Below are positions 3,411-46,651 of a stretch of DNA of 64,000 bases, piece after piece (the stretch's first letter is position 1; every line of letters starts with the position of its first letter). A program made the position numbers and the translations under genes. Source of the DNA: a virus; IMG/VR virus record IMGVR_UViG_3300023174_003433, positions 53,728 to 117,727 of that record, one strand, 5' to 3'. The notes below the pieces were generated by a model, which made no database searches, was not told where the DNA came from, and saw nothing but the letters and a program-made list of their open reading frames with translations.

Positions 3411-3442
3411 TTTATATTCCTGATATCATTAATCCTATTGGA

Positions 3443-3450
3443 TATTTATG
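3443..3450 (-). promoter_or_regulatory. T4-type late promoter (CATAAATA variant)
   Basis: One mismatch to TATAAATA, ~33 nt upstream of the 3410 start. Confidence 0.55.
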
Positions 3451-3544
3451 TCAACACCAACTTAAGCTCAAAAGTAAATTCGCTTTTTGGAATCTAGGAT
3501 TTCGTCTCCGGAAATTCTAGGCCGGAATGAAAATTTTCGAATTT

Positions 3545-4801
3545 TTAATTATTCAGTTCGTTGTCAAGGGGTTTACGAATTGAATCTAATTCTTTTTTGA
3601 GTTCTTTGATGGCCTCGACTAAAAGTGGTATAACTCGTTCATAATGAATAGTGAGATATTTCTCATCAATCGGTGCTGGAACAACCACTTCAGGTAATAC
3701 TGCCTGTACTTCTTGTGCCGATAGGCCAATTTCTGGTTTAACTGTATATCCTAGAGCTTGTGCGGTTTCATTGGCTTCATATTGAAAACCATTTAATGTC
3801 ATTACCTTGGCCAACGCATTTTCTATATTACCCAAACGTTTCTTCAATCTATCATCCGAATAATAAGCAGTAATATTGTTGGTGGCACGAAGTTCGCCTG
3901 TTGTACCAGAACCTGCAGTTCCTACACCAACCGATCTAAATTGAACATCATTACCCGTACTCACAGATTGGTTAATTGTGTAACTAGAGAGATTTGCTGA
4001 AGAACCGGCGATATCACCAGTTATCTTAGAACCCGCTAAAGATGTAATCCATGAAGGATTAGCATATGAACCATTATTAACCACTCCATTAACTACTGCC
4101 ATATTAAACGTATTACCTGAATTTAAAGCAGACTTAACAAATTGTGTTGTGGCCACAGTATTAGTGTTTGCATTTAAATCTCCAGTAACCGCTGTTGAAC
4201 CAGCGGATAATGTCGCAACACCACTATATGCACCAGCAATTGAACTTGTAGAAATTGCATTATTACATGTAATATTATTAAAAATGCCTGTTGTACTAGC
4301 GTTAATAAGTGGAGCAAATATTGCAGTATTTGAAGTTAAAGAATCTGCCACTACAAATCCAAGTGCATTTAAATTTAAAGTTCTTATTAAAGTATTTGCT
4401 GTAATTCCGTTAACAAAGGCACCACCACTGGCATTTACTGTTGTGGTTCTTACTAAAGTGTTTGATGTGATTGAATCAGTAATTAATGTTTTTGCAATAA
4501 CAGCATTATTAGCAACTTGCAAAGCAAAATCGGAACCAGTAATTGCTACGTTAGATGTAGCAACTAAATCTCCCAATAAAGAGGTGTTTCCAGAAACAAT
4601 TGCTCTTCCTAAACTAACAGTATTGGCTACTGACAAAGCAACACCAACTCCATTTAAAAATAAAGTTCCAGTATCTTTAGTGAAATTGTTAGAAGATGTT
4701 CCTCCAGCAAGATTATTTAACTCGACTGCAGCTTTATTTTGCTGAGCAACTAAGTCACCAAATGTGTTATTAAAACTTAAAATGTTTACTGTATTTGCCA
4801 T
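3545..4801 (-). CDS. Tail fibre with C-terminal intramolecular chaperone (peptidase S74-type) domain
   Basis: AYYS-DDRLK cleavage motif, IGLSAQEVQAVLPEVV, YERVIPLLVEAIKEL coiled coil. Confidence 0.85.
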   Translation of the reverse strand: MANTVNILSFNNTFGDLVAQQNKAAVELNNLAGGTSSNNFTKDTGTLFLNGVGVALSVANTVSLGRAIVSGNTSLLGDLVATSNVAITGSDFALQVANNAVIAKTLITDSITSNTLVRTTTVNASGGAFVNGITANTLIRTLNLNALGFVVADSLTSNTAIFAPLINASTTGIFNNITCNNAISTSSIAGAYSGVATLSAGSTAVTGDLNANTNTVATTQFVKSALNSGNTFNMAVVNGVVNNGSYANPSWITSLAGSKITGDIAGSSANLSSYTINQSVSTGNDVQFRSVGVGTAGSGTTGELRATNNITAYYSDDRLKKRLGNIENALAKVMTLNGFQYEANETAQALGYTVKPEIGLSAQEVQAVLPEVVVPAPIDEKYLTIHYERVIPLLVEAIKELKKELDSIRKPLDNELNN

Positions 4802-11313: not shown

Positions 11314-11328
11314 TTTTTCTTTCCAAAA

Positions 11329-12729
11329 TTAAAATCTTAACACTAAACGGAATTGTTCTGTGCCATCAGGACTTCTTTGAATTGCCGTTCTATTTTCTAT
11401 ATATGTCATGTATCCAGAGTATAAAATAAATTCTGAATCGGATGTGGCCAATAACGTCCTAACAGCTACGTTTACAGCACCACTCGCATCTTGAATAAGA
11501 GCATCGTTTATAGTTGGTGTTCCATTTGTATTTATGACACTCAAAAGATTGTTTGTGGCATCAAAACTAACAACTTGAGCTGTAAATGTTGCTGAGGTTA
11601 AACTTGGTCCTTGATAAATTGTTTGACCACTAACAAATAAACCTGTTCCAGGAGAAACAGTAAACTGTTTTGTGGTGTTAAAAATATCTTCAAAAGTATA
11701 AGCAGGTGTACTTTGTTGTGATGATGGATCCAATATTAAACCTATTTGATAATAGGTAATGTCTGTTGGAATAGTTCCGTTCTCATCTTCAATAAATTCT
11801 ACAGTTATCATCACATTGTTACAGCCTAAGTCCGAAATTGGATCAAGTCCGTGGCCACCAACAGGAGAAACAGGAGTTATTGCAACGGCCGTTACGTTTG
11901 CTGCCGGATAACCTGCAGCTGGCGTTATAACTGTGTTTGCGTAAGTATAACCTGAACCAACACTTGTCATTATCATATCAGTCAAATAACCTGCTGCATT
12001 AATAACTGGAGAACCGTTTGCACCAGTTCCATCGCCAGTTATAACAACATCTACTCCACCAGATTGATATCCTTGGCCAACTGTTGTAATGTTAATCACA
12101 TCTATTTGTCCTTCAGCTACAGAATTTAATGTAGGATTAGGTACATTAAATCCTACCGGAACAGGCATCCAATTTTCATCCAAAAATTTTTGTTTTATAC
12201 CAGCGTCAATTGAATATATGAATTTCCATTTGTATCCATCAGCTGTTTGTACCAAAAAAGTTGAATCAAACGTTCCTGGAGATAGTTGAGGTTCAACAGT
12301 TGATGCTGCACCTCGATTATTCCATAGACAAATAAACACTTGGTCATATCTATTTTTAATATAGAAATTTTTAGAGACCAAATTATTTGCATCTACAGCA
12401 AACATATTTACTCTGTCATCATAATAGTCATAAACTGTACCTGTAGCCCAATTCCTTCTTGGTACAACAGGTGCAATATCTGAAGATATTATTTTTTTCA
12501 CAGCAATAATGTTTTTAAATGTGTCTTTAATTGCAATTTGACTTTGTTCTGGTGCCGGAGGATTAAAAGGATCAGGCCAAGGAGTTACTCTACCGATAAA
12601 AGCATATAAACTATTAGGCACATCAACAAATTCTGAAGCAGTTGATGAAGGTGCAAAATAGTATTGTAATACCTCATACAACTTACTAGAGTATGTTAGT
12701 AGTGACGAATTGGCGGTTAAAACTGGCAT
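11329..12729 (-). CDS. gp8: Baseplate wedge subunit gp8
   Basis: Y.FIGR..PW, VVPRRNW..GTVYDYY, DGYKWKFIYSI, GGHG.DP...LG, YIENR..I.RS....EQFRLVLRF. Confidence 0.9.
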   Translation of the reverse strand: MPVLTANSSLLTYSSKLYEVLQYYFAPSSTASEFVDVPNSLYAFIGRVTPWPDPFNPPAPEQSQIAIKDTFKNIIAVKKIISSDIAPVVPRRNWATGTVYDYYDDRVNMFAVDANNLVSKNFYIKNRYDQVFICLWNNRGAASTVEPQLSPGTFDSTFLVQTADGYKWKFIYSIDAGIKQKFLDENWMPVPVGFNVPNPTLNSVAEGQIDVINITTVGQGYQSGGVDVVITGDGTGANGSPVINAAGYLTDMIMTSVGSGYTYANTVITPAAGYPAANVTAVAITPVSPVGGHGLDPISDLGCNNVMITVEFIEDENGTIPTDITYYQIGLILDPSSQQSTPAYTFEDIFNTTKQFTVSPGTGLFVSGQTIYQGPSLTSATFTAQVVSFDATNNLLSVINTNGTPTINDALIQDASGAVNVAVRTLLATSDSEFILYSGYMTYIENRTAIQRSPDGTEQFRLVLRF

Positions 12730-19769: not shown

Positions 19770-20789
19770 TTAACTAATCGCTCCGTATGTTGTTCCCGAA
19801 CCACTTGTTGTTGCTGAATAACCATTTAATGCAATTGCTTTGCCGCCTGCGCCACCAGCAATTGATCCGGCAGATGCGGTGCCACCAGATGCACCCCAGC
19901 CACCGCCACCTCCACTACCATGGCTATTGGAGGGACTGGCTACTGAACCAGCATTACCTGCACTACCGCCGGCACCACCGGTACTAGGACCTCCGGGACC
20001 ACCTGCGCCGCCAGTTCCTGGTAATATTCGGCCTCCGCCGCCGCCGCAGCCACCAACAGCTGGATTTGGTGGACCAGTAGCAATCGTGCCGCCTGCACCG
20101 CCACCAGCACCGCCACCAGAACCGCCAATGTTACTTGATCCATACGTTTGGCCTCCATTACTTCCTGAAGAACCTATTGATCCTCCAGTTCCAAAAGGAC
20201 TTGTAAATCTGCCCAATCCTCCATCTCCGCCACCGGCACCGCCACCACCGCCAGCTAAATTACCGCCACCACCGCCGCCACCACCAGCTATAAATGCACC
20301 TGAACCATTTACTATAGTGACATTGATGCCTAAAGATATCGCCGGACCTCCTGAAGCACCAGCTGTTGTTCCAGAATTAGTGCCTCCTTTACCACCTTTT
20401 CCAATAATATATCCGTTATTGGTTAATGTTACACCATTAGGCCAAGAACCATCAATTGTTAAACCTGCTACACCAGTATTATCTGACCAAACATATACAC
20501 CAGCACCAATTGTGGCCGCAACAGCAGCTGTGCCGTCCCATCCAGCAGCCAATGCTAATGTTCGCAAATTTACTTCTTGTTGGTTAGATGAAATAGTAAA
20601 AGAAAACGAACTTGATTTACCATAACCATTAAACATACTTATTGGTCCACTAGCGACACCCAATAAAGTTCTTACAGAAGAATCAAACAAACTAAGTTGT
20701 GCTGTTTCACTAAGACTCAATTCTTTCGCTATTGATTGACCTGTAATAGAACCAATTAAACTAATTGGACCAGAAGAATTCAATGGCAT
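19770..20789 (-). CDS. Glycine-rich receptor-binding adhesin, T-even gp38-like
   Basis: Docking-type N-terminus MPLNSSGPISL...SIAKEL...ISMFNGYGKS, then NNGYIIGKGGKGG, GGPAI, IAGGGGGGGG polyglycine motifs; locally GC-rich. Confidence 0.75.
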   Translation of the reverse strand: MPLNSSGPISLIGSITGQSIAKELSLSETAQLSLFDSSVRTLLGVASGPISMFNGYGKSSSFSFTISSNQQEVNLRTLALAAGWDGTAAVAATIGAGVYVWSDNTGVAGLTIDGSWPNGVTLTNNGYIIGKGGKGGTNSGTTAGASGGPAISLGINVTIVNGSGAFIAGGGGGGGGNLAGGGGGAGGGDGGLGRFTSPFGTGGSIGSSGSNGGQTYGSSNIGGSGGGAGGGAGGTIATGPPNPAVGGCGGGGGRILPGTGGAGGPGGPSTGGAGGSAGNAGSVASPSNSHGSGGGGGWGASGGTASAGSIAGGAGGKAIALNGYSATTSGSGTTYGAIS

Positions 20790-32183: not shown

Positions 32184-32229
32184 AAAAAACCCGCCAAGGT
32201 TGCGCATTGTTAAGAGGCGTGGCGGGTGT
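32184..32229 (-). terminator. Intrinsic terminator at the convergence of the two strands
   Basis: Minus strand ACCCGCCA...TGGCGGGT followed by a T-tract. Confidence 0.7.
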
Positions 32230-35629: not shown

Positions 35630-35925
35630 TTATCCAGGTGATTCTGTTGCTAAGTTCACCTGGTGAAACTCCGCTTACCTTTTAGGCAGCAAGTGCAAAC
35701 TTATTATCGTTAGCGTTTAATTTAATTTAGTGATTACGCCTTCTCTGGCGATTCTCCATTATTATACTAATCTGATAATCGAATCTATTCGCCCCCATTA
35801 GGAACTACACTAGACCAGTCTGGCTCTGTTTGCTACCGATAACTCGGTTCGTTCTAATGTAGTTGCTGGTGGAGGCGGTGGGATTCGCACCCACGTCTTA
35901 CCAAACGTTTTAATAACTTCTACGA
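35630..35925 (-). ncRNA. ssrA: Circularly permuted (two-piece) tmRNA, tag peptide (A)ANDNKFALAA*
   Basis: Acceptor piece ...GACGTGGG-TGCGAAT-CCCAC-CGCCTCC-ACCA ends at 35867 and precedes the coding piece starting GGGGGCG at 35796; G3.U70 pair; tag ORF 35714-35682; outer ends approximate. Confidence 0.92.
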
Positions 35926-35926
35926 A

Positions 35927-36037
35927 TTATTTCAAAATAAAAAGTATTGCTAGTACACCTACAGCGAATGCACAGGCACCCATGTAGAAAGCAAAACTTC
36001 TTACCTTATATTCTTTTACACAATCTTTGCTAGGCAT
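35927..36037 (-). CDS. Small membrane protein (36 aa)
   Basis: MPSKDCVKEYKVRSFAFYMGACAFAVGVLAILFILK*, coupled to the upstream ORF. Confidence 0.55.
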   Translation of the reverse strand: MPSKDCVKEYKVRSFAFYMGACAFAVGVLAILFILK

Positions 36038-36224: not shown

Positions 36225-36659
36225 TTATGGACACCAACTGGTCTTTGCCTCACCATAGTATTCCCGTGCATAACCTTGTTGGATCAACATGGAACGCAAG
36301 GACTGACCATTCAATAGTACGTCACCTAGGACACGACCACCATACTTGTCCCAATCCATTAATACCACTTGCCGAGTGGTAAATTGTTCTATCATCTTCT
36401 TGGTAAATGCTGTGGCGGCTTGGCCACGAGCATCCTCAGAAGGACATTTGGCACGAAAACCTTTTTCTGGCGTATCAACACCAAATACACGGATTGACAA
36501 TTCTTTCTTTAATGGATCTGGTAACCATAACGCTTGGAATGCCACAGTATCACCATCAATAACTCTAGTAATTGTTGCATTGTATGTTACGCCAGCTTTT
36601 TGTTGTTGAGCAAAAGCCAACATTGGTACAAATAATAATGTAAGTAATATTTTTTTCAT
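36225..36659 (-). CDS. Thermonuclease (SNase family) with signal peptide
   Basis: MKKILLTLLFVPMLAFA, RVIDGDT, IRVFGVDTPE, DKYGGRVLG, GYAREY. Confidence 0.9.
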   Translation of the reverse strand: MKKILLTLLFVPMLAFAQQQKAGVTYNATITRVIDGDTVAFQALWLPDPLKKELSIRVFGVDTPEKGFRAKCPSEDARGQAATAFTKKMIEQFTTRQVVLMDWDKYGGRVLGDVLLNGQSLRSMLIQQGYAREYYGEAKTSWCP

Positions 36660-37312
36660 TTGTATTGGTCCTTATAAAATTGTATGGCCTTTACCAAACC
36701 ATCGATATGATGTTCTGTTTTTTCTTGGAACAATAAAGGTTGTTCATCTTGTACTGCCATGATAATGACCAAATTATTTATTGGTGTGCCAATCAATTCT
36801 TCATACATGAGTGCATATGCTGATGTTTGCCAGAAATAATCTTCAATCTCAACTTTAGATTTTATTTTCTTAGATGTTTTAAAATCAATTACAGATAATA
36901 CACCATCAAACTCACCAATACAATCTACACGACCTGCCATACCTAATTGTTTAGACCATAGTGCTTGTTCTTGGTAATGAATATTATTGATACGATTGAG
37001 TAATGGCTTGATTGATTTAAACATTTCTTTGGCATCAGGCATAATATCACCTAACGATTCATTGTTTAAATAACGTTCACATAGTGTATGAACATTGGTG
37101 CCACGACCTGTGGCGGCCTTTGATATTCTATTGGCCTCTGCTTCACCAACTCGTTTACGCCATGCCATGATGGCATCTTTCTTTTGTGCACCAAGAACTG
37201 TGGTGACCGATGGCAACTTTGTGCCATCTTCTAATGTATAGTATCGTTTACCATCAGGAAAAGTTTCGGATTGTAAGTCTTTTAGTTCTTTTGGTGAACA
37301 GTAATTAAACAT
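36656..37312 (-). CDS. PD-(D/E)XK exonuclease of T4-like phages
   Basis: R.Y....G..LPSVTTVL, WRKRVG..EA, RGT.VH..CE.YL, AGRVDCI..FDG.LS.IDFKTS, Q..AYA.M.EE. Confidence 0.88.
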   Translation of the reverse strand: MFNYCSPKELKDLQSETFPDGKRYYTLEDGTKLPSVTTVLGAQKKDAIMAWRKRVGEAEANRISKAATGRGTNVHTLCERYLNNESLGDIMPDAKEMFKSIKPLLNRINNIHYQEQALWSKQLGMAGRVDCIGEFDGVLSVIDFKTSKKIKSKVEIEDYFWQTSAYALMYEELIGTPINNLVIIMAVQDEQPLLFQEKTEHHIDGLVKAIQFYKDQYK

Positions 37313-37907
37313 TCTTTTTCTCAAATTTAGGTATCAATAAAAATTCTCTTGTTATATCTATAATATAAATTAATCTTCTTTTGTTTGTTCTATTATATGC
37401 ACTATGTAATTCTCCATTATCAAAAGCAAACAAATTTGACCAATTGGTTGTTAAACCATTAACTTCAAAACCAGAATCTCCTTCGGGTATGATTAGTGGT
37501 ATATGTATTCTAACACTATTATGTGACCTATTTTCAACATCAACGTGTTTTTTAATTATTCCACCAGATTCTAAAATACTATAACCACTACAACCACAAT
37601 GTTTAATATATTTTTGTGTTAATGTTGATGCTGTTGGAAAAGCATTTGACACCTTTGGATCTAAAAACATATTACTCTCTTTTTTTTGTTCTGGCAAGAA
37701 GTATCGTAAACCTTCAACTTTCCAATCCACTTTTCCGGGAACATGATCTAAAATAGCCAATGGATTTGCCTTAGAATAGGGAATACCTCCCTTAAATGTG
37801 GTGTCAAAATCTTTGTGGTGGGCTAAAAATTCACTTCGTAAGTTTGGTACCAATGATAATAATTCATCCGCAATATGTATTTCTTCTTTTGTCCAAAGAT
37901 ATTTCAT
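37305..37907 (-). CDS. Fe(II)/2OG oxygenase, Asp/Asn beta-hydroxylase-like
   Basis: YSIL..GG.I.KHVD, RIHIPLIIP, FAFDN...HSAYN.T..RRLI.IIDI. Confidence 0.85.
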   Translation of the reverse strand: MKYLWTKEEIHIADELLSLVPNLRSEFLAHHKDFDTTFKGGIPYSKANPLAILDHVPGKVDWKVEGLRYFLPEQKKESNMFLDPKVSNAFPTASTLTQKYIKHCGCSGYSILESGGIIKKHVDVENRSHNSVRIHIPLIIPEGDSGFEVNGLTTNWSNLFAFDNGELHSAYNRTNKRRLIYIIDITREFLLIPKFEKKNV

Positions 37908-39424
37908 TGTATGCCCAACTTTAATTTTTTATATTCTAAAATGGTTTGATCCGCTTCTCGTATTTTTTTATTTAAAAAAGACTTGTCAAAATTGCCATCA
38001 ATAATGTCTTTAATATCAACACCCATACCAACCAATTCATAAACATCATGGTTGATACTAACTCCCTTATCGGCATTTCCATAAATCGATTTACCAGCTT
38101 TAATTCTGTGTTTTTCGGTCTCAATATTTAATTGATTAGTAATTGTTCTGGCCGTGTGCCAGTTCGTATATTTGTTTTTCCATATCATCACACCATTATT
38201 ATCCGTACCATATTTTATATCATCATCAACTTTTGGTATGGAATATTCTCCTGGTAACAGTTCAGTATAACCCCATTTGTCATATTCTTTTTCAAATTCA
38301 CTTAGGCGGCTTATTGAACCTTTTCTAATTAACAACGGCCACCAATCCCAATTATCGAACACTTCAAAGTTTTGGTCAAGTAACATTTGTTGGCTTTTAA
38401 TCACACTAGAGATTGGTTCTCCTGGTAAACCACAAATCATACCAGTATATGTATAGATTGGTTTGTATTTCTTTAATTGCCTAATTGCCTCAAACTGTCT
38501 TTCATTATCTAATCCTTTGCCAATGGCTTTCTTTGCTTCTGGATGAAATGTTTCTAAACCAAAAGTTGCAGCGACTAATCCTGTATCGGCCAACATTGGA
38601 ATTGTTTCAGGAAAAGCCTCAATTAAATCTGCTCTGAGAAATGCTGTATATGTTATTTTTATTCCACTTTTAGCAATTGCTTCAGCAACATATTCCAATT
38701 TAACTACATTATCATTAAAGGTATCATCATTAAACCAATAATTATTGACACCAAACATTTCATAATTTCTTCTCAACTCAGCAGATAGGTTATCCACATG
38801 ACGAATATAATCATTCTTTTTTTTACCTAAAAGTGGAAAGGCACAAAATCTACATCTAAAAATACAACCTCTACTAATTTCAATCGGTAAAAAATTGTTT
38901 TTAATCAAATCACTTTCCAACCATTTGATTGTCAGGTCGCTAGAATCATTCTTGTATAACATTTCCGCATTGATTGATTTTGTTCCACGATAAGGCACCC
39001 ACGGCAAATCATTCAAAAGCTTTTTATTAAGAAATTTCATGTAGTGTAACATGGCTTCTTCAGAATACCCCCAAACAATTCTATCTACTTGTGTCAAATC
39101 AACACCTTCAATAGGAGTTTCACTACCACCAATTAGTGTTTGTACTTTTGGATATTTTTCTTTGATGTGTTTGAATAGATAATTAATTTTATCGAATGCA
39201 TATATGAATGTTATACTGATACCAATAAACAAAGTTTTTGGTCCAATATATCTTTCACAAAGTAGTTCTAGTTCTCTTTCAGTAAAATTACCAAAATAAT
39301 CTATAACTTCAATATTGTAATTGTGTTGTTCTAAAAAAGTTCTTAGGCGTGCGGCACCAGCAGGACGACTAATTGTCCTAGTTCTTTCCATACCAGTGAA
39401 TATAATACCATGCCGATCATCCAT
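37904..39424 (-). CDS. Class B (cobalamin-binding-type) radical SAM enzyme
   Basis: N-terminal Rossmann-like B12 domain (GAA.L..FL, IGISIT, LIGGS, G.SEE), IEISRGCIFRCRFC, DDTFND, GLET.H...K.IGKG, I.GLPGE. Confidence 0.85.
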   Translation of the reverse strand: MDDRHGIIFTGMERTRTISRPAGAARLRTFLEQHNYNIEVIDYFGNFTERELELLCERYIGPKTLFIGISITFIYAFDKINYLFKHIKEKYPKVQTLIGGSETPIEGVDLTQVDRIVWGYSEEAMLHYMKFLNKKLLNDLPWVPYRGTKSINAEMLYKNDSSDLTIKWLESDLIKNNFLPIEISRGCIFRCRFCAFPLLGKKKNDYIRHVDNLSAELRRNYEMFGVNNYWFNDDTFNDNVVKLEYVAEAIAKSGIKITYTAFLRADLIEAFPETIPMLADTGLVAATFGLETFHPEAKKAIGKGLDNERQFEAIRQLKKYKPIYTYTGMICGLPGEPISSVIKSQQMLLDQNFEVFDNWDWWPLLIRKGSISRLSEFEKEYDKWGYTELLPGEYSIPKVDDDIKYGTDNNGVMIWKNKYTNWHTARTITNQLNIETEKHRIKAGKSIYGNADKGVSINHDVYELVGMGVDIKDIIDGNFDKSFLNKKIREADQTILEYKKLKLGIQ

Positions 39425-39427
39425 AAT

Positions 39428-40201
39428 TTATTTTTTAGTTAAATATTTTTCTTTGATTGCTTCAAAGAAATCAATATCTTCTTCAGTCAATTCAACACTT
39501 TCAATTTTTTCCATTTGGCCACGAATATAGTTACGATACAATTCAAAATCACCTTCATATTTAAAATTCTTTGTAATTTTTTTTGTATCGTAAGCATCCA
39601 TAATAATATGGTACCGATCTTCGTCAGAATCATTTCTAATTTGGTGCCAAAGATTTGTCCAAAGAATCCAAACACCACCATCTGCCGGCATGTGTAGATT
39701 TTTACCTTGGCATATGTGAACAGATTTTTTATTAGTCCACAATGGTATGTGTATGCGGGTCATATATTCGGAAGAATTTGCATCTCTATGAATTAAACTC
39801 TTTGAGTGTGCTTTTAGACAAGCAACTCTCGCTCTACACGGAGTTAATCCAAGCTCACGCAAATCATCCAATACTTTTTTAATTTCACCAACATACGCTT
39901 CTGTTGGTTTGTCATGTTCTAATCCATGATAAATGTTAAAATGTTTATATGCTTTCCAAATTAATTCTTGTGTAGGTAAAAAGGACTCTAATGTTTGTCC
40001 TTGTTCTAGTTGAATTGCTTCCCAGCCATCAGTCCATGTGGCATTTCTACTCAACAAACTCCAACCACCAAAACCATGATATTTTGGTGTTTCATATTCT
40101 TTACCTTGAACAACTTGGTCACCTAAAATGAAAACACTTTCACGGACTTCTTTTTTTAATTTTTCAATATCAACTGTATAATCTAATTTTTCAAAAAACA
40201 T
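39428..40201 (-). CDS. Fe(II)/2OG oxygenase, Asp/Asn beta-hydroxylase-like
   Basis: RARV..L......IHRD, RIHIPLWTN, HMPADG......T...H...N.S.EDRYHII. Confidence 0.8.
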   Translation of the reverse strand: MFFEKLDYTVDIEKLKKEVRESVFILGDQVVQGKEYETPKYHGFGGWSLLSRNATWTDGWEAIQLEQGQTLESFLPTQELIWKAYKHFNIYHGLEHDKPTEAYVGEIKKVLDDLRELGLTPCRARVACLKAHSKSLIHRDANSSEYMTRIHIPLWTNKKSVHICQGKNLHMPADGGVWILWTNLWHQIRNDSDEDRYHIIMDAYDTKKITKNFKYEGDFELYRNYIRGQMEKIESVELTEEDIDFFEAIKEKYLTKK

Positions 40202-40212
40202 TTTTATTTCCT

Positions 40213-40881
40213 TTATAAATTTCCAGTTTCTTTTAACATTTCGTACACTTGTTCATAGTTATAGTGTCTGGTTCTTAAAGCAAAAGCTTTTCTAAGTTTT
40301 GTGCCATCCAATGGTTCAACATTATGTGCCACACTAACATCTAACAAATACGCTTCATTCTTATTAGCGACAAATGAACCAATTTCATACACATCGTCAA
40401 AAGTATATACTGCATCAACATATGTAATTTCTTCACAAGTGGGCATATTTTGTTTCTCAGCTACAAACTCTTTAACTTTAGTTTTTAAATCTTCCACATT
40501 AATATCTTTTGCTTGCATATTGCCAGTTGTAACCTCTGTGTGCCTATCTTCTTCTGTTTTCCAAGAATTTGCACCTGGTTTTGCTTTCCAAAAAATAGTT
40601 TTATAATCTCCTGGTTCATAATAAAAATTAATTGTTGTTATAAAATCATTATCAACATGAGGTAACAATAAACTATTAATTGACATTCTCGTTACTTGAA
40701 AATCTTTCCAATACCTTTCTGGAATAACTTTATATAAAGTTTCACGTTCAGGTTCTGGTGTCCAAATTGTACTGTGTCTTACTCCTAATCCATATTTTCC
40801 TGCAAATGAATCAGCCTGACCTTTTGGTATAATTGTGTGTGGCATATATTCATAGAGGTGTTTTAATTTAACAAATGCCAT
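40213..40881 (-). CDS. Divergent Fe(II)/2OG-type (double-stranded beta-helix) oxygenase
   Basis: LLPHVD.....TINFY ... YLLDVSVAHNV ... R; HxD...H triad. Confidence 0.65.
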   Translation of the reverse strand: MAFVKLKHLYEYMPHTIIPKGQADSFAGKYGLGVRHSTIWTPEPERETLYKVIPERYWKDFQVTRMSINSLLLPHVDNDFITTINFYYEPGDYKTIFWKAKPGANSWKTEEDRHTEVTTGNMQAKDINVEDLKTKVKEFVAEKQNMPTCEEITYVDAVYTFDDVYEIGSFVANKNEAYLLDVSVAHNVEPLDGTKLRKAFALRTRHYNYEQVYEMLKETGNL

Positions 40882-41401
40882 TACCTGTTTCCTTTAACAT
40901 TTTAAGGACATCTTCATACTTATGTATGAAAGTTCCTAGTGTAAGTGCTTTTCTTAAATTAAAATTCCCTTGTACGCCGTGTATTTGAGTTACATCAAGT
41001 AACCAAATTTCAAAATCTTTGGCAATAAAACTATCTACCTCAATCAAATCTTCTTCAAAATAAATGTGACCATTAGTTTGATTTTTAACCTGTATAGTTT
41101 TTAAATCATTATTTTTTGGTTTATAAAATACAGTTTTACAACCTTCTGTTTGCAAATAAAAATTAATTGAAGTAATTATTTCCGTGTCTGTGTGAGGAGG
41201 TATTATACAGTCAATTGTCATTATTGTCAAGTGAAAATCTTGCCAATACCTTCTTGGTAATATACCATAAAGTTTTTCTGCTTCGGGTGACCATATCTTT
41301 TTGTAATCAATACCCTTGCCATTATCACCTTTAAATGATTTTAACGGATCGGTAATTGCATAAAGTGGTTTTTCAAATGTTTTTTCCAATCTGGCAAACA
41401 T
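40868..41401 (-). CDS. Divergent Fe(II)/2OG-type oxygenase, paralogue of 40213..40881
   Basis: IPPHTD.....SINFY ... WLLDVTQIHGV ... RKA; both proteins share MLKETGN near the C-terminus. Confidence 0.65.
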   Translation of the reverse strand: MFARLEKTFEKPLYAITDPLKSFKGDNGKGIDYKKIWSPEAEKLYGILPRRYWQDFHLTIMTIDCIIPPHTDTEIITSINFYLQTEGCKTVFYKPKNNDLKTIQVKNQTNGHIYFEEDLIEVDSFIAKDFEIWLLDVTQIHGVQGNFNLRKALTLGTFIHKYEDVLKMLKETGNGIC

Positions 41402-42111
41402 TACTCAAGTTTCCACTCTTTGATTTTGGACATTCTGCCTGCCCAACTTTTTAAGATAACAGTATTTGATGCGTCTTTATCGACTACTTTTCTTAGGTCG
41501 GTCGATAATGAAATTCTTAAATCATCTGATTTGTTTTCATCAATACCATGTAACACATAAGACGGGAAGAAAATTAATCTACCTTCAACGGGTTTATATC
41601 TACGTTCACGCATGAAAGGACTGCCACTTAAACGATTATTCTCCCAATCAATGGCATGAGAAGAATCAAATGCCACTAAATCACCACAACCTTCTTTGGC
41701 TTTGATGTAATATGTTGCAGCAATTGCTGATTCAGTATGTCCGTGTACTTCAAGTCTTTCACCTGGTTCCCGTACATTGACCCAACCCATGAAATGTTCA
41801 CAACCACGAATATTTAACATACGAAGTTGTGGTATGTTCTGTACAATTTTTCTAGTTACAATATCAATAATTTCTTGTTTAAGTATATCTAAATTGGGTC
41901 TGCTGTAGTCCCATATACTATTATGAGGATCTCTATCTACACCTAAGGCAATATTTTTACCAATGGCATAAATTTCTTCTAATAAAACTTCATTGAATGA
42001 TGTATCGAATTTGGTTTGTTCTTCCCAGATTGGGCTTTGCCAAAACATATTTTGTGCATTTTGATACCAATGATAACGATCCCTATCAGCTTTTGTTTTA
42101 AAACTATTCAT
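41401..42111 (-). CDS. Fe(II)/2OG oxygenase (TIGR02466-like)
   Basis: WVNV...G.....HGH, A.YY, P.EG.LIFFPSY..HG...NKS...RISLS. Confidence 0.82.
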   Translation of the reverse strand: MNSFKTKADRDRYHWYQNAQNMFWQSPIWEEQTKFDTSFNEVLLEEIYAIGKNIALGVDRDPHNSIWDYSRPNLDILKQEIIDIVTRKIVQNIPQLRMLNIRGCEHFMGWVNVREPGERLEVHGHTESAIAATYYIKAKEGCGDLVAFDSSHAIDWENNRLSGSPFMRERRYKPVEGRLIFFPSYVLHGIDENKSDDLRISLSTDLRKVVDKDASNTVILKSWAGRMSKIKEWKLE

Positions 42112-42123
42112 AATAAAATATTA

Positions 42124-42510
42124 CTACTTATTTTCTTTTGCAAAGAGCTCTGCGTGAAGTCTTAATCTTTCCATTTTAGCTTGATGTGCTTCTTCTGTTA
42201 TGTCAGCATCTTTTGCCATGTCTAAAGCGTATCGATATTCTTCTATAGGATTTCTTTCTTCATCTTGAAAAACCCATCCGGCACCAATACTTTTAACAGC
42301 TACTTGCAAAGGAGATTTCCATACTCTATCTAAAATATCCCCATAATTCTGTTCAATTAAATAAACTTCTTCTTTTTCTTCTGGTGAAAGTTTCAAGTAA
42401 TTTTGTTCGAAAATAGTTTTAAAAAATTCTCCCACACACATTGGGTTGAATATAATTGTATTGCCATCATGTGTTGTTAAAGTTTCTAATGAAGTAAAAG
42501 TATTTTTCAT
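42124..42510 (-). CDS. Hypothetical protein in the modification cluster
   Basis: 128-aa ORF overlapping its upstream neighbour. Confidence 0.65.
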   Translation of the reverse strand: MKNTFTSLETLTTHDGNTIIFNPMCVGEFFKTIFEQNYLKLSPEEKEEVYLIEQNYGDILDRVWKSPLQVAVKSIGAGWVFQDEERNPIEEYRYALDMAKDADITEEAHQAKMERLRLHAELFAKENK

Positions 42511-42830
42511 TGTTTATCCAGCCATAATTTATATTCTCGAATTAATTCGTTATTTACACCTTTTCTTAAAGCCACAGGCAAAAATACTATAGAATTTAAC
42601 ATTGAATTTCCATATAAATTAGTTATCATTTTTTCATGGTCTGTTACCATCTTAAAATATCTTTCTTTATCTTGTTTTGAAAAAGAACTAATAATTTCAT
42701 AACTAATGACATTGGCAAAATAAGAAACATGGTCATGTATATACTGGCCATTATCGTCTGCAGTTATTTCAACCGCTTTAAGTTTTCCTTTAGGTTTTTT
42801 CTTTATAAAGGTTTTTCTTAATTCTTTCAT
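42507..42830 (-). CDS. Hypothetical protein in the modification cluster
   Basis: 107-aa ORF coupled (TAATG) to the Cys-rich gene. Confidence 0.65.
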   Translation of the reverse strand: MKELRKTFIKKKPKGKLKAVEITADDNGQYIHDHVSYFANVISYEIISSFSKQDKERYFKMVTDHEKMITNLYGNSMLNSIVFLPVALRKGVNNELIREYKLWLDKQ

Positions 42831-43732
42831 TAAACAATTTTCCTTTGTGGTGTCAATTTTTCAATCATTCGGCCAAGTTCAGCAACTAGTTTAAACATGA
42901 CAAAAATAACAACAAGAGATGCACCTTTAATGAATCCTGGTTTCTTTTTACTTGGACCAAACCAACGGCGCCATACACCCACAACTTTACAAATTGGTAT
43001 GCCAAAAATCATTAACATTTTACCGGCAATACTACCAGTTTCTTTTTCGCCCATCATATAGGCCATTTCTTCAGCCCAAGGTGTTGCAATATCATAAGCC
43101 CAAGATGTTGACCATTTCTTGGCAGCAATACTAAATTCTTCGTCATTCATCCAAGGCATCATTTTTGGACCTTTACCTTCCATCCAATCAACGACAATTT
43201 CAGCCCATGCTCTGTAACCATTGTAAATGTCTGGATTGGTCTTAATTAGTCTTTCACCAAATGCTTGGTCGGCTTCAAAAATGCTTTGCTTCATAAGGCC
43301 AATTTCAAATAATTTAGTACAAATAATTTTACTACAATTACAATCATATGTGAAGCAATTTTGGTCACTTGTACAATTATATGTGGGTGTTGGCGAAATT
43401 TGACAATTTCCCGTTTGCAACCAAGATTGTGTGTCACAGTTGGCAGCACCTATGTTGGTACAATTATTTGTTGTATAGCATTGAATTGCCTCTCCGCCAC
43501 CACAGTTACTACAGTTGCAATTAGTTACGTTACCATTATTGCAGTTACCCTGGTCATTCTGTAAAAAATAACTTAATCCCCAAAACCCAGCCAAATTTGG
43601 CGTACCTGGTCGTATACCCGGTTTTATGTAATCGTTCAAAAAAGTTAAATCAGCAGCGGTTCCTACAGGAATTCCGAGCTCGGTTTCAATATCCGCTATG
43701 CCAATTGGTTGTCCTGAAGATGGTAATGTCAT
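42830..43732 (-). CDS. Asn-Cys-repeat protein: adhesin-type N-terminus, 12-Cys core, KIICT C-terminal domain; putative substrate of the cluster
   Basis: MTLPSSGQPIGIADIETELG start; Cys at 64,72,74,77,85,91,99,110,120,126,131,133; SKIICTKL..G...IF.AD..FG...YNGY..WA. Confidence 0.75.
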   Translation of the reverse strand: MTLPSSGQPIGIADIETELGIPVGTAADLTFLNDYIKPGIRPGTPNLAGFWGLSYFLQNDQGNCNNGNVTNCNCSNCGGGEAIQCYTTNNCTNIGAANCDTQSWLQTGNCQISPTPTYNCTSDQNCFTYDCNCSKIICTKLFEIGLMKQSIFEADQAFGERLIKTNPDIYNGYRAWAEIVVDWMEGKGPKMMPWMNDEEFSIAAKKWSTSWAYDIATPWAEEMAYMMGEKETGSIAGKMLMIFGIPICKVVGVWRRWFGPSKKKPGFIKGASLVVIFVMFKLVAELGRMIEKLTPQRKIV

Positions 43733-43765
43733 TTTTACACACTTTTTAAAAGGTTATTATTTTAT

Positions 43766-43773
43766 TATTTATA
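43766..43773 (-). promoter_or_regulatory. T4 late promoter TATAAATA upstream of the Cys-rich gene
   Basis: Exact consensus overlapping the radical SAM stop codon, ~33 nt upstream of the ATG at 43732. Confidence 0.75.
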
Positions 43774-45223
43774 CTTCCAAACGAGATTTGCCGTATACAG
43801 GAACATCGTCTACTTGACCAACAATTTCTTTTACAACTTTAATTGGTATGATTTTTTTATTGGATTTTTCTTCTTCATGTTGAAAGATAGTACCAAAAAT
43901 GTCTTGTCTATCTAATGGTAAAGTATCACTCTTAATTAAAGTGGGTACATATCCATTGGTTATTAAGGTGAATGCCGAAGCAAACAAAGCCACATTATCT
44001 GAATAGGCATTGGCACATGAGATGTCCCAAAACTTTTCATCCAAGAACATACAGGCACCTTTACAAATGTGTAGTACAGGACACTCAGGACATTCTTTAC
44101 GATTTGACCAATGAGTAACTGATTTGAGTTCTACGTTTGAATAATCACTCAAATTACCACCATGATGTGATTCTCCATTCTTTGAGATTTCTAAAGAACT
44201 GACATTTTGACAGGTCATTACATTTCCACGTAAATCCACTGCAATGGTATGTTCGTCATCCATACCACATTTTTGGCCTAAGTATTTTGCTTCTGAGTGA
44301 TTTAAAATAGATTGAATCAAACTGTCAATTTTACCCAATTGAGCAACAAATCCTATTTTACCTCCAGTACCATACAATTCACCAAAAGCTTTTTTTCTGA
44401 ATTCAAAATGTTCTTTTTTTGTAATTAAAGAGTTTGAAATGCCTTCTTCATCATAAGCATCAACCAAAGAACCTTCACCAAGTTTAACGTCCTCATCACC
44501 AGTTAAATTCACAAACCAATCATAAATTTCTTTTCTACTTTGATTTTTAGAATTCAACATCGAATTAAAACTAAATTTTTTACCTAAACGAGTCATCATT
44601 CTATAAAACCCAAGAATAGTTTCTTTCTTTTCTGGATCGTCAAAAGGATCTGGACCACGAACAAATTGACCAGGACCATCATGTGATATGGCTACAGAAA
44701 AGTCCATCATCATCAACCAATCAATGATTTCATCTGTCAAAATAGAACCATTTGTAATAATACTAAATCTTGGTTTAGTTTTCCAATCATCAAATTTTTC
44801 AGCGATAGCCTCAGCCAAAGGTTTTAATGTTTTCCAATACACAAGAGGTTCACCACCCCAAAATTCGATTGCCAATCCAACATCTTCATCAAAATGTAAA
44901 GATTCTAATTTTTCCATGAAAGCATCGATGTCTTTCTTTGATGTTTCTGGTTGACGTTCAACAAATTTTTGAGAACAATAATCACAAGAATAATTACAAC
45001 TTAAACCCATTTGGATTTTTAAAGTACTAATTAATTTGGCCTTCTTTAATGGATGATTTTTATCAAAAGACTTAAATGGTTTTAAGTTAAAATTTTGTCT
45101 TTGATTTTCTGGATATTCAAAAATATTACCTTCTGCATCCTTTAAGACATTTGCAATGTTGTCATAATGGAAAATTTTTGTATCACCATCCTCAAATCTG
45201 GTGCCTTTAATTTCAAATAGCAT
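43769..45223 (-). CDS. Radical SAM/SPASM-domain maturase (anSME/peptide-maturase family)
   Basis: CNYSCDYC, FWGGEPL, ITNGS, ISHDG; SPASM cysteines KCG...VDLRGNVMTCQ...CPECPVLHICKGAC...C. Confidence 0.9.
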   Translation of the reverse strand: MLFEIKGTRFEDGDTKIFHYDNIANVLKDAEGNIFEYPENQRQNFNLKPFKSFDKNHPLKKAKLISTLKIQMGLSCNYSCDYCSQKFVERQPETSKKDIDAFMEKLESLHFDEDVGLAIEFWGGEPLVYWKTLKPLAEAIAEKFDDWKTKPRFSIITNGSILTDEIIDWLMMMDFSVAISHDGPGQFVRGPDPFDDPEKKETILGFYRMMTRLGKKFSFNSMLNSKNQSRKEIYDWFVNLTGDEDVKLGEGSLVDAYDEEGISNSLITKKEHFEFRKKAFGELYGTGGKIGFVAQLGKIDSLIQSILNHSEAKYLGQKCGMDDEHTIAVDLRGNVMTCQNVSSLEISKNGESHHGGNLSDYSNVELKSVTHWSNRKECPECPVLHICKGACMFLDEKFWDISCANAYSDNVALFASAFTLITNGYVPTLIKSDTLPLDRQDIFGTIFQHEEEKSNKKIIPIKVVKEIVGQVDDVPVYGKSRLEV

Positions 45224-45231
45224 TTGTTATC

Positions 45232-45381
45232 CTAAAAAATTCGTTTATGTAATTCGGTTCTAAATCGTTCTATTTCTCTTAGTTGTTTAACGTATTCAGC
45301 CAATTCTTGCCTTACTCTTTCCTTGTTCGCTGATTCGTAGTATAGCCGCTGTTGTTTTGACATCATTCTTTTTTTGCTCAT
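45232..45381 (-). CDS. Small basic helical protein (49 aa; absent from ORF track)
   Basis: MSKKRMMSKQQRLYYESANKERVRQELAEYVKQLREIERFRTELHKRIF*, SD AGGAG. Confidence 0.6.
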   Translation of the reverse strand: MSKKRMMSKQQRLYYESANKERVRQELAEYVKQLREIERFRTELHKRIF

Positions 45382-45498
45382 CAGGTCTCCTGTTATTTTT
45401 ATTATACTTGGATACTTTTTGAGCTTTTACTATGGGGGCAATTTTATCATTGACACCTCGTTGTTTAGTTAATAGAACAGGGAATTGAATATTCACAT

Positions 45499-45783
45499 TT
45501 ACCATTCTCTAGGCAACTTTGTTTTGTGTGATTTGTGTAAGGTATTTCCTGGTACGGTGGCTTTGATTCGTTCAATGACACCTTTTTCAAAGGCAGCATC
45601 AGCAGTTTTGGTACCAGGTACAGACATACGACCAGCATCCGAAAATACTGGTAGATTCTCGGCTGAATGATGACGTTCTAGGTGTGGGTTATTGGAGATG
45701 AATTCATCCAATACCGTATAGGACATACGGTGTTCTTCAATTGAATTGGTTTTTTTATTTAAAAAATCATATGTTGGCATCAA
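45499..45783 (-). CDS. FmdB-like small protein (lacks the zinc cysteines)
   Basis: MPTYDF.N..T...EE..MS...LD.F...NPHL pattern. Confidence 0.65.
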   Translation of the reverse strand: MMPTYDFLNKKTNSIEEHRMSYTVLDEFISNNPHLERHHSAENLPVFSDAGRMSVPGTKTADAAFEKGVIERIKATVPGNTLHKSHKTKLPREW

Positions 45784-46370
45784 AGGTACTCATGGGTAAG
45801 TGATGAATTCATTTTACGATACCATTCTTTCATAAAGGGTGGTACCTCTCTCTTATTTATCTTACCTTTCCATGACCAAAGATGTGATTTATTCATTTTG
45901 TAATAATTGTGATAGGACTTCAAGGAATCACCTGTCACCTTACATTCATCAGGCATGGCAGGTGTGGGACCAGTAAATTTACCTTTAGGTATATTGGTGG
46001 GCAATACCGCCAGATCAGGTATCAATCGTGCCGTAGCATGAACCTTGCCATAACGATAGGTAAATTCACTCAATAGTTCACACCACATATTATAAAGCCA
46101 CCGATAGTTTTCATTACTTTGGCGAACCCATATTGCAGAAGGATGATTCATCATAGTGGGTTTCATAAGGCGTTCTTCACGACCATCAGGCAACCGCCAT
46201 GCTTTGATTGACCGATTATTGGCCGACAATCTTTTGTATTCTTGGCCATCAAGCACTCGATGTGCTGTTGAAAGTAACTGAGCATACTCAATTACCATTT
46301 TGCAAACATGGCGGTCAACGTGCATTTGTGCACATTTTTTTACATCTTCATCAAGATAAAATATATTCAT
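45780..46370 (-). CDS. Pyrimidine-dimer DNA glycosylase (endonuclease V-like family)
   Basis: MNIFYLD.D...CAQMH.D.HV.KM..EYAQLLSTAHR, NHPSAIWVR, EFTYRYGK.H, PAMPD. Confidence 0.8.
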   Translation of the reverse strand: MNIFYLDEDVKKCAQMHVDRHVCKMVIEYAQLLSTAHRVLDGQEYKRLSANNRSIKAWRLPDGREERLMKPTMMNHPSAIWVRQSNENYRWLYNMWCELLSEFTYRYGKVHATARLIPDLAVLPTNIPKGKFTGPTPAMPDECKVTGDSLKSYHNYYKMNKSHLWSWKGKINKREVPPFMKEWYRKMNSSLTHEYL

Positions 46371-46651
46371 AGCATTCTAATTAGTCCAATTGTGTCGATT
46401 GTGGTGAGAAGAATATAATTAGCCAGCATACCAAATGATTTACGAGTATAGGAAGCCCAACCATACATAGCGCAACCGGCAATCCAAATAGGGTATAAGA
46501 TAAGAAGTGGGGGGTTGGGAACGGTGAGAGCCATAGTGATACTGCAACCAATGCTAATAGCCCAAGCAACGAGTTCAACCAGAAAACGTATTCTATTACT
46601 TTTCCAATCATCACGAATCCAATCAAACAGGTTATAAAATAAATCGTTCAC
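46367..46651 (-). CDS. Small multi-pass membrane protein
   Basis: Three hydrophobic segments. Confidence 0.7.
   Translation of the reverse strand: MNDLFYNLFDWIRDDWKSNRIRFLVELVAWAISIGCSITMALTVPNPPLLILYPIWIAGCAMYGWASYTRKSFGMLANYILLTTIDTIGLIRML

Follow-up and report, generated by a model that had tools for sequence, protein, structure and literature searches.

The DNA considered here (the window) makes up the final 64 kb of the viral record IMGVR_UViG_3300023174_003433, which is 117.7 kb long, and its gene content is T4-like: it encodes baseplate proteins (wedge, hub and tube cap), a single-strand-binding protein of gp32 type, a helicase loader and an S74-type fibre. Within it lies a cluster of ten minus-strand open reading frames (ORFs), numbered g1 to g10 from 45223 down to 37305 (Table 1) and separated by overlaps or gaps of at most 36 nt, an ORF map that bears out the ten co-oriented, tightly packed genes described in a first-pass annotation of the letters alone. 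An exonuclease gene (36656-37324, phrog_298) and a DNA-binding gene of phrog_624 (45780-46370) flank the cluster. Its two central members are a radical S-adenosylmethionine (SAM)/SPASM enzyme, g1, and a protein carrying a long Asn-Cys tract, g2; a second radical SAM enzyme and several 2-oxoglutarate (2OG) oxygenases follow. The reading that we favour, and hold to be fairly probable, is that g2 is a fibre-type protein with a thioether-bridged core, that g1 is its dedicated maturase, and that the oxygenases usually travel with this pair. Pfam, PHROG and NCBIfam searches, together with a fold model of g6, agree with the gene inventory of the first-pass annotation. No match in Pfam or PHROG was found for g2, g3, g4, g6 or g7, and NCBIfam added for these five only a chance-level match of g7 (E 0.0026, 16.6 bits against a cut-off of 301). 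A megablast search of 37000-45500 against cultured phages gave no match.

Table 1. Features of the Asn-Cys cluster, in window coordinates (aa, amino acids)
Feature	Coordinates	Strand	Basis or remark
g1: radical SAM/SPASM enzyme, 484 aa	43769..45223	-	Pfam Radical_SAM; candidate maturase of the Asn-Cys tract
T4-type late promoter motif TATAAATA	43766..43773	-	Overlaps the g1 stop codon
g2: Asn-Cys protein, 300 aa	42830..43732	-	Three parts
g2 residues 1-58: N-terminal motif	43559..43732	-	Multiple alignment
g2 residues 59-134: Asn-Cys core, proposed substrate	43331..43558	-	Cys counts, shuffles
g2 residues 135-300 and stop: helical 'KIICTKL' domain (KIIC domain)	42830..43330	-	AlphaFold2 (AF2)
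g3: 107-aa protein, no family match	42507..42830	-	Pfam, PHROG, NCBIfam
g4: 128-aa protein, no family match	42124..42510	-	Pfam, PHROG, NCBIfam
g5: 2OG-Fe(II) oxygenase, 236 aa	41401..42111	-	PF13759 (2OG-FeII_Oxy_5), phrog_81
g6: double-stranded beta-helix (DSBH) oxygenase-like, 177 aa	40868..41401	-	Invariant HxD...H...R, AF2, Foldseek
g7: 222-aa paralogue of g6, with insertion	40213..40881	-	BLASTP
g8: Asp/Asn beta-hydroxylase family, 257 aa	39428..40201	-	Pfam PF05118 (Asp_Arg_Hydrox)
g9: B12-binding-type radical SAM, 506 aa, facultative	37904..39424	-	Pfam Radical_SAM; B12-binding sub-threshold
g10: second Asp/Asn beta-hydroxylase family, 200 aa, facultative	37305..37907	-	Pfam PF05118

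The core of g2 holds 12 Cys, at residues 64, 72, 74, 77, 85, 91, 99, 110, 120, 126, 131 and 133, which are preceded, in that order, by N, N, N, N, Q, N, N, N, N, N, D and N; the tally given before, of 12 Cys in residues 64-133 with ten after Asn, one after Gln and one after Asp, is exact on recount. Ten NC pairs were reached in none of 100,000 shuffles of g2 residues 58-135 (shuffle maximum 9), and of the 1,013 ORFs (stop to stop, at least 40 aa) that the 117.7-kb record contains, one exceeds 3 NC per 100 aa. A large protein collection yielded 526 relatives of g2 at E ≤ 0.001 among 811 candidates. Nine of the core Cys (C64, C85, C91, C99, C110, C120, C126, C131 and C133) and three Asn (N90, N98 and N119) are invariant in 25 homologues, as is C138 in the adjoining C-terminal domain. 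The fetched loci supply 71 distinct homologues, in which Asn stands before 850 of the 1,074 Cys (79%) that lie N-terminal to that domain. AF2 gives the core no confident fold (predicted local distance difference test, pLDDT, 25-33). At 300 aa and in three parts, with relatives' forms of 98-175 aa, g2 does not have the short leader-core build of a precursor of a ribosomally synthesised and post-translationally modified peptide (RiPP), and neither Pfam nor NCBIfam detects an NHLP or Nif11 leader on it.

The N-terminal motif of g2, M-T-L-P-x-S-G-x-I ... E-x-G, is common to Gly-rich phage proteins, and we propose that it is a docking-type part. In a multiple alignment it also opens a Gly-rich 339-aa protein encoded inside the baseplate block (19770-20789, minus strand); BLASTP of g2 against the two ORFs near 20789 gave nothing, and the shared motif is visible only in the multiple alignment. 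The 339-aa protein sits between the hub genes and a gp25-like baseplate wedge gene, and its sole family match is phrog_10745, of unknown function. The same motif opens Gly-rich proteins that have no Cys and no radical-SAM neighbour in four related loci (L037, L042, L047 and L051; the locus numbers are ours).

g1 passes the Pfam Radical_SAM cut-off (E 4.7e-10, 40.3 bits against 29.5), and about 60 conserved residues precede its radical SAM core. The SPASM seven-Cys motif reads C-x(9-15)-G-x4-C ... C-x2-C-x5-C-x3-C ... C. In g1 the corresponding residues C319, C338, C378, C381, C387, C391 and C403 (C319-x13-G-x4-C338; C378-x2-C381-x5-C387-x3-C391; C403), like the CX3CX2C motif (C76/C80/C83), are invariant in all 12 aligned homologues. 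With both cysteine motifs present and invariant, the original assignment of g1 as a SPASM-type radical SAM enzyme stands. Its best NCBIfam matches are PapB, the geopeptide maturase, CcpM, QhpD, the Nif11-peptide maturase, YhhB and the SCIFF maturase, at scores well short of the family cut-offs (PapB 83 bits against 340, CcpM 67.7 against 500, QhpD 66.2 against 453, SCIFF 55.4 against 425); the anaerobic sulfatase maturase (anSME) model gives 48.1 bits against 349.45, and the NxxcB model is not among the 25 matches listed. The nearest solved chains are 8vpo, the second-best 5wgg, which we take to be CteB, and anaerobic sulfatase maturase; this last enzyme and YydG are among the PDB and NCBIfam matches. 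The best-scoring families form Cys thioethers on peptides or on a protein subunit. Judged by its sequence, g1 appears to be a new clade inside the peptide- and protein-modifying SPASM group. A complex of the enzyme (entered as an alignment) with g2 residues 1-140 was predicted with a score of 0.00 against a mark of 0.32, and no inference is drawn from it.

The genomic coupling of the two genes is seen from both sides. Viral relatives were sampled as the best 80 of 152 g2 matches and the best 80 of at least 578 enzyme matches. The forward set comprises 81 loci, namely the 80 fetched with the protein and L001. An Asn-Cys ORF is present in 55 of them, and the SPASM gene accompanies it in every one of the 55, in nearly all cases immediately upstream; 24 loci have neither, and these either have the KIIC domain joined to N-terminal parts that are Gly-rich or of another kind or, as with L024, are cut. 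Two apparent cases of an NC protein without SPASM gene (L036 and L071) proved to be alternate-frame ORFs lying within longer ones and were set aside, and the candidates L051 and L052, considered as Asn-Cys proteins without the enzyme, were rejected as Gly-rich proteins with 0 Cys. In the reverse direction, the enzyme alignment led to 72 new loci (62-88% identity), in 69 of which an ORF with 9-18 NC per 100 aa adjoins the enzyme; the three exceptions are cut at the contig end, with 265 nt, 0 nt or no upstream sequence left. An enzyme parted from the Cys-rich gene, the finding named beforehand as damaging to the pairing, was not seen among the sampled viral loci with an intact flank. Together, this two-way co-occurrence across architectures supports the proposal that the SPASM enzyme functions as a pair with the Asn-Cys protein.

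The arrangement of the pair varies. The long form of g2 lies downstream of the enzyme, and forms of 129-175 aa without the C-terminal domain lie directly upstream of it in nine loci (L133, L140, L141, L145-L147, L150, L151 and L153); in some loci 0.7-1.5 kb is inserted between the two genes. In the short-form loci the pair is found among S74 fibres, a DUF4815 protein, PF13759 oxygenases, another radical SAM enzyme and a Trp-halogenase-family gene. At L043 a 44%-identical enzyme accompanies an NC+KIIC protein whose N-terminus differs, together with two peptides of about 100 aa encoded in tandem (10749-11054 and 11064-11360), which have a fibre-like 'WSQVSGKPS' stretch and a C-terminal NCYNCNCNCNCNC. 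As a side observation, Trp_halogenase-family genes stand within a few genes of the short Asn-Cys gene and the enzyme in L150 (11179-12315) and L145 (10409-11620), with 323 and 101 bits, and several short Asn-Cys proteins end in ...CACW or ...CTW; a C-terminal Trp serving as halogenation site is pure speculation.

The pair also occurs in bacterial genomes and cultured phages. The best 80 of 206 bacterial enzyme relatives (34-71% identity) come mostly from Limnohabitans, Polynucleobacter, other Burkholderiales and Alphaproteobacteria, and a Cys-repeat ORF lies beside the enzyme in 65 of these 80 loci, mostly in prophage tail modules. It is an NC-rich ORF on the same strand, nearly always upstream, in 57 loci, a (S/T)YC...NCNCDC tail ending SYCSYCSYCTYCNCNCDC in three more, and a shorter NCNCNC(D/A)C tail in a further five; among the remaining 15 loci, 14 have less than 2.3 kb upstream. 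The bacterial NC-rich ORFs read as tail fibres ending in the repeat, with CxCxCxC(C) runs at prophage fibre ends, and the tail modules that hold the pair contain GpJ, DUF1833, NlpC/P60, endolysin and recombinase genes. L171, for example, is a lambda-like tail module (GpJ, DUF1833, NlpC/P60, endolysin) in which a fibre, three 2OG oxygenases and the enzyme stand in a row, and L190 ends with an endolysin and a serine recombinase.

Two further observations were made in these genomes. Directly after the Asn-Cys fibre of L171 lies a 275-aa protein of unknown family (3128-3955), which has no similarity to the window oxygenases; tblastn finds its relatives in 51 of the 82 bacterial and cultured-phage loci, more than for any oxygenase. 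On three contigs of bacterial metagenome-assembled genomes (L217, L221 and L229) the fibre tail reads ...NYNCMSYCSYCSYCSYCTYCNCNCDCGD, with Tyr rather than Asn before most Cys, and this variant adjoins a SPASM enzyme of 37-38% identity.

Among cultured phages, enzymes of 43-44% identity are encoded by Achromobacter phages JWF and 2-1 and Ralstonia phage RSP15, and in the two neighbourhoods inspected, those of JWF and RSP15, the enzyme gene lies inside the fibre module. The JWF fibre gp028 (L235 4811-6262) reads ...NCNCDCNCNCS and continues from residue 308 with a Hint module (Hom_end_hint, 47.5 bits against 32.1); the radical-SAM gene, gp030, comes two genes after it, and a JWF-like prophage of Burkholderia paludis (L174) has the same tract-Hint junction. 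The side fibre of RSP15 ends ...NTNCQCGN, a much weaker case. The pair is thus clearly carried by JWF and probably by RSP15. Its recurrence in unrelated phages suggests, at the level of sequence, that some viruses chemically modify their host-binding fibres.

What follows the tract bears on its place in the mature protein. Four contexts were found: nothing, Peptidase_S74, Hint and the KIIC domain. Peptidase_S74 (PF13884), an intramolecular chaperone of tail fibres, is absent from g2; in L148 (29.1 bits against 22) and L152 (32.1 bits) it comes directly after the tract. S74 and Hint modules cut themselves off, and such self-removal would make the tract the mature C-terminus. On the simplest reading, a fibre-type protein would in its mature form end with the tract, and the KIIC domain would stand where S74 or Hint stands in relatives, possibly as an assembly or removable module. 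In agreement with the original view of g2 as a structural protein, the S74 fusions, the tracts that end tail fibres and the N-terminal motif shared with the baseplate block all point to a fibre or structural kind and not to a free peptide.

The KIIC domain itself is predicted by AF2 to have six helices (pLDDT 70-85), and two 19-aa windows of g2 (235-253 and 266-284) exceed 1.8 on the Kyte-Doolittle scale. Elsewhere the domain follows poly-Gly runs on unrelated N-terminal parts (Gly-rich, gp5-like, or a 1,662-aa DUF4815-like protein), none of them with Cys repeats or a radical-SAM neighbour. It is also the only part of g2 that tblastn recovers among cultured phages, namely in Synechococcus phage SynMITS9220M01, where it ends a 616-aa protein beside a fibre gene. 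Foldseek against the PDB returned nothing at E ≤ 0.001; BFVD returned homologues only, including a DUF4815 protein, and ESM Atlas only unnamed viral clusters. The best hits of a wide VIA-align search, helical effector domains, reached a Z of 6.3, in a range common for helical models.

The first-pass annotation had placed an exact late promoter before g2, and this motif is both real and rare. TATAAATA (43773-43766, minus strand) ends 33 nt before the g2 ATG. In the 64 kb it occurs three times on the minus strand and never on the opposite one, and its two further sites stand in front of the baseplate tube-cap gene and of a baseplate wedge gene. Most related Asn-Cys loci have TAAATA 26-41 nt ahead of the start codon, and 12 of 38 distinct upstream regions contain the full octamer. 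From the position of the motif, g2 and the genes downstream would be late transcripts, with g1 lying upstream of the promoter. A scan of 36500-46500 gave 47 sigma-70-like sites, no excess over shuffles (mean 49.0), and nine terminator-like sites against a shuffle mean of 4.5 (sd 2.0).

The genes downstream of g2 supply candidate tailoring enzymes. g5 matches PF13759 with 61.8 bits (cut-off 27), and g8 and g10 match PF05118 with 36 and 47.3 bits (cut-off 22.6); g10 also has weak LpxO and OlsC matches in NCBIfam. g6 and g7 are paralogues (35% identity, E 1e-34, BLASTP), in which H70, D72, H141 and R150 are invariant across 23 sequences. The AF2 jelly-roll model of g6 has a pLDDT of 92.5, and Foldseek against the PDB matches it to YcfD, MINA53, NO66, PhyH, AlkB and cupin dioxygenases, at E about 5e-4 and a modest TM of 0.42-0.45. 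Because of this fold model and its PDB matches, we place g6 and g7 in the 2OG oxygenase class; hhalign finds no profile similarity between them and the PF05118 genes, their profile against PDB sequences gave nothing meaningful, and ESM Atlas gave leads only, at 0.89. The earlier count of five oxygenases is therefore reasonable, with g5, g8 and g10 identified by Pfam and g6 and g7 by invariant residues and predicted fold. g9 passes Radical_SAM (71 bits), its B12-binding match (25.6 bits, E 1.2e-5) lies below the cut-off of 32.1, and its best NCBIfam match is the PhpK family (97.2 bits against 600), a P-methyltransferase family.

How often these genes accompany the pair was counted in 53 distinct related loci with at least 7 kb downstream of the enzyme. 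g5 is present in 47 and g6, g7 and g8 in 49 each, with two distinct g6/g7 paralogues in 27; the counts are 22 for g3, 17 for g4, 18 for g9 and 16 for g10, and for the flanking core genes 39 (exonuclease) and 31 (DNA-binding gene). g9 and g10 are optional members of the cluster, g9 being found also in the short-form loci L133, L150 and L151. Outside this set, PF13759 genes flank the pair in L043, L150 and the prophage L171, and an oxygenase-like gene lies nearby in 55 of the 82 bacterial and cultured-phage loci, with no such match in the other 27. We regard g5-g8 as probable tailoring enzymes of the same substrate. Of the first-pass picture of a crosslinked, hydroxylated and methylated tip, the part that finds support is the coupling of the core pair; hydroxylation and methylation would be an optional elaboration, given the counts of g9 and g10 and the gene content of JWF considered below.

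The enzyme-substrate relation is what we infer from this coupling, and the chemistry may be envisaged as follows. By analogy with its nearest enzyme families, g1 would cleave SAM and take a hydrogen from a carbon of the core, either in a side chain or in the backbone, the C-beta of Asn or Asp being the obvious candidate, and this carbon would then be joined to the sulfur of a neighbouring Cys held at an auxiliary Fe-S cluster. Repetition would install several thioether bridges and so rigidify the tract. With four Cys in five preceded by Asn, the most economical guess is that the thioethers run from Cys to Asn; the NxxC spacing is contained in NCNC. The PF13759 oxygenase, the DSBH pair and the 257-aa g8 would probably add hydroxyls to the same tract, and g9 and g10 would be optional extras in the closest relatives. 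We tentatively put forward a wider version of this scheme, possible but less secure than its core: the (Asn-Cys)n tract would be the mature distal tip of trimeric fibres, stapled by SPASM enzymes through multiple Cys-to-Asn thioethers, possibly between chains, and often hydroxylated, and so would amount to a virion adhesin cross-linked by an enzyme; it would have arisen or spread across T4-like myophages, lambda-like prophages of Beta- and Alphaproteobacteria and cultured Achromobacter and Ralstonia phages, and the S74, Hint and KIIC modules would present the tract and then leave it as a free C-terminus.

Several points weigh against this assignment of fibre, maturase and thioether core. The coupling evidence is wholly genomic, and the viral samples consist of best matches only, more distant viral enzyme relatives lying outside them. 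Clustering of the 72 distinct Asn-Cys proteins gives 36 groups at 70% identity and just one at 50%; many loci are related by descent, so locus counts overstate the number of independent events, and we place weight on distinct architectures and phage types instead. The bacterial locus L165 has a full upstream flank and no convincing Cys-repeat ORF. g1 passes no curated family cut-off, and no RRE/PqqD-type Pfam match (RRE, RiPP recognition element) is found on it at E ≤ 0.01. Two membrane-like helices in the C-terminal domain are odd for a fibre tip, and the alternating Cys could bind metal or form disulfides instead. The late promoter does not by itself mark a structural gene, because oxygenase genes share it. 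As for the accessory enzymes, g9 and g10 are absent from two thirds of the relatives, the weak lipid-hydroxylase matches of g10 allow other substrates, and JWF has no detectable relative of those oxygenases (g5 and g6/g7) that were compared with the intervening gp029.

These last points lead to the strongest alternative, in which only the SPASM enzyme acts on g2 and the oxygenases and the B12-type enzyme target host proteins, lipids, nucleic acids or 2-oxoglutarate levels. It is compatible with the favoured explanation of the core pair. The optional status of g9 and g10 would suit such roles, as would the LpxO/OlsC matches of g10 and the P-methyltransferase-family match of g9, and the pair does without detectable relatives of the oxygenases compared in JWF and without any oxygenase-like match in the 27 bacterial and cultured-phage loci already mentioned. 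Furthermore, 2OG oxygenase genes are numerous in T4-like aquatic phages, and passages on those of cyanophages ascribe them to DNA repair or 2OG control (PMC3037559). However, g5, g6/g7 and g8 are kept more often (47-49 of 53 loci) than the flanking core genes (31-39 of 53), and in the forward set, where 26 loci have no enzyme gene, L024, which is cut, is the one locus of these 26 to show any of the accessory genes, so that g5, g6/g7 and g8 are absent from the 25 uncut loci having only the C-terminal domain. In addition, 2OG oxygenases stand between fibre and enzyme in unrelated lambda-like prophages, and the best structural matches of g6 are protein hydroxylases. We consider this division of labour rather unlikely, though it deserves more credit than the two alternatives that follow.

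A second alternative takes the tract for a metal-binding or disulfide-stabilised fibre element, with the SPASM enzyme doing other chemistry (epimerisation or Cys oxidation) or acting on another target. It would be an alternating-Cys counterpart of the His-x-His tips with which T4 fibres bind metal. An alternating C-x-C pattern puts the thiols on one face of a strand, the prophage fibres have CxCxCxC(C) ends, and the failure of AF2 to fold the core would be expected if metal or cross-links define its structure; SPASM enzymes also carry out epimerisation and Cys/Ser oxidation, and YydG and anSME are among the matches of g1. Against this, the enzyme is next to the tract almost without exception in all the architectures, which speaks for the two being enzyme and substrate irrespective of the reaction, and metal binding alone does not explain why Asn stands before 79% of the Cys. 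The 300-aa protein lacks C/S-x-P/A-x-R, the motif that sulfatase maturases target, and the families that score best against g1 are thioether formers. We judge this explanation improbable. Less probable again is a non-virion product, a RiPP-like factor, either anchored in the membrane or released (with a role, for example, in superinfection exclusion, lysis timing or toxicity), that only borrows fibre-like modules, which the membrane-like C-terminal helices of g2, the free-standing repeat peptides of about 100 aa at L043 together with the 129-139-aa forms elsewhere, and the position of the window cassette among replication-type genes outside the tail block would suit, but which fits poorly with S74 and Hint fusions at the C-terminus of fibre proteins, with the pair lying inside tail-fibre modules of other T4-like contigs, prophages and cultured phages, and with an N-terminal motif common to a baseplate-block protein and a late-promoter motif that also precedes two baseplate genes.

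As to the phage itself, all 20 public runs that hold 41401-45223 wholly or partly are DNA runs; they come from nine studies, and four of them may be the source sample. The runs with an informative label are freshwater or lake-water metagenomes, the others being labelled only 'metagenome' or not at all, and on the strength of these informative labels we take the phage to be freshwater, not marine. A permuted tmRNA lies at 35631-35978 (minus strand; Rfam tmRNA_permuted 102.9 bits against 47, alpha_tmRNA 59.4 against 50) and hints at an alphaproteobacterial host; ARAGORN did not report it. Rfam also matches an abiF RNA motif at 32189-32226 (minus strand, 51.5 bits against 37), just downstream of the neighbourhood of the gp32-like gene.

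Phage fibres are known to mature through folding chaperones and self-cleavage, and a literature search found no report of dedicated radical chemistry acting on them. A paper on pelagimyophages mentions radical SAM cassettes in a host-recognition cluster and also a core Asp/Asn hydroxylase, and offers neither a substrate, an Asn-Cys protein nor a maturation hypothesis; it states that radical SAM proteins are missing from its freshwater genomes, whereas the labelled runs that hold this window are freshwater. A passage in PMC12801897 calls a cyanophage radical SAM maturase an 'antibiotic synthesis gene' and does not name its substrate there. Full-text searching, with supplementary tables outside its reach (those of PMC7029224 and PMC5332604 may list such genes), turned up no publication connecting a radical SAM enzyme with a phage fibre or with an Asn-Cys protein. 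If the favoured reading of g1 and g2 is true, cross-linking and hydroxylation would be a new layer of host recognition in abundant aquatic phages and prophages, and one unexplained set of radical-SAM and 2OG-oxygenase genes in T4-like aquatic phages would gain a concrete substrate. It would further extend RiPP-type enzymology to structural proteins of viruses, and the new Asn-Cys motif with its enzyme clade could be used for peptide stapling.

The cluster can be set beside several known systems. The proteusin pathway to polytheonamide combines a radical SAM enzyme acting on a peptide, a B12-type radical SAM enzyme and an Fe/2OG hydroxylase on an Asn-rich substrate. The first-pass annotation drew this parallel, which holds for the enzyme classes and breaks down at the substrate, in that g2 has no NHLP or Nif11 leader; moreover, the families nearest to g1 are thioether formers and not an epimerase. 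Enzymes of the AspH type hydroxylate Asn or Asp inside disulfide-rich epidermal growth factor (EGF) modules in animals. The likeness here is that two PF05118 proteins stand beside a small Cys-rich, Asn-rich domain; the difference is that g2 lacks an EGF consensus and that PF05118 also includes lipid hydroxylases. With S74 and Hint tail fibres the common ground is position, since the relatives' tract directly precedes those modules and the short forms and prophage fibres end there, but g2 has neither module, and its KIIC domain is helical and without a known fold.

Closer are the systems that form thioethers. Passages in PMC8326336 document C-beta thioethers from Cys to Asn (NxxcA) and from Cys to Asp (freyrasin), and several Cys-to-Asp/Glu thioethers installed by QhpD in a protein subunit that is kept in a larger assembly. 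The QhpD/QhpC system resembles the present one in having a protein subunit as substrate, and QhpD is the fourth-best NCBIfam match of g1; it differs in that g1 has no quinone cofactor context and in that the acceptor here would be Asn and not Asp or Glu. The ranthipeptides (PapB/freyrasin, NxxcB/NxxcA, CteB/SCIFF and CcpM) share with g1 and g2 a full-SPASM enzyme beside a Cys-rich substrate. Their maturases differ from g1, which scores far below the cut-offs of 340-500 bits and in which no RRE domain is detected, and the substrates differ too: that of the window is a 300-aa, three-part fibre-type protein with Asn directly before Cys and 10-18 repeats, it belongs to a phage, and its product is probably part of the virion and not a secreted peptide. 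Together, these comparisons place the system outside every curated family, as one that, to judge from its genes, would work like a ranthipeptide or QhpD system.

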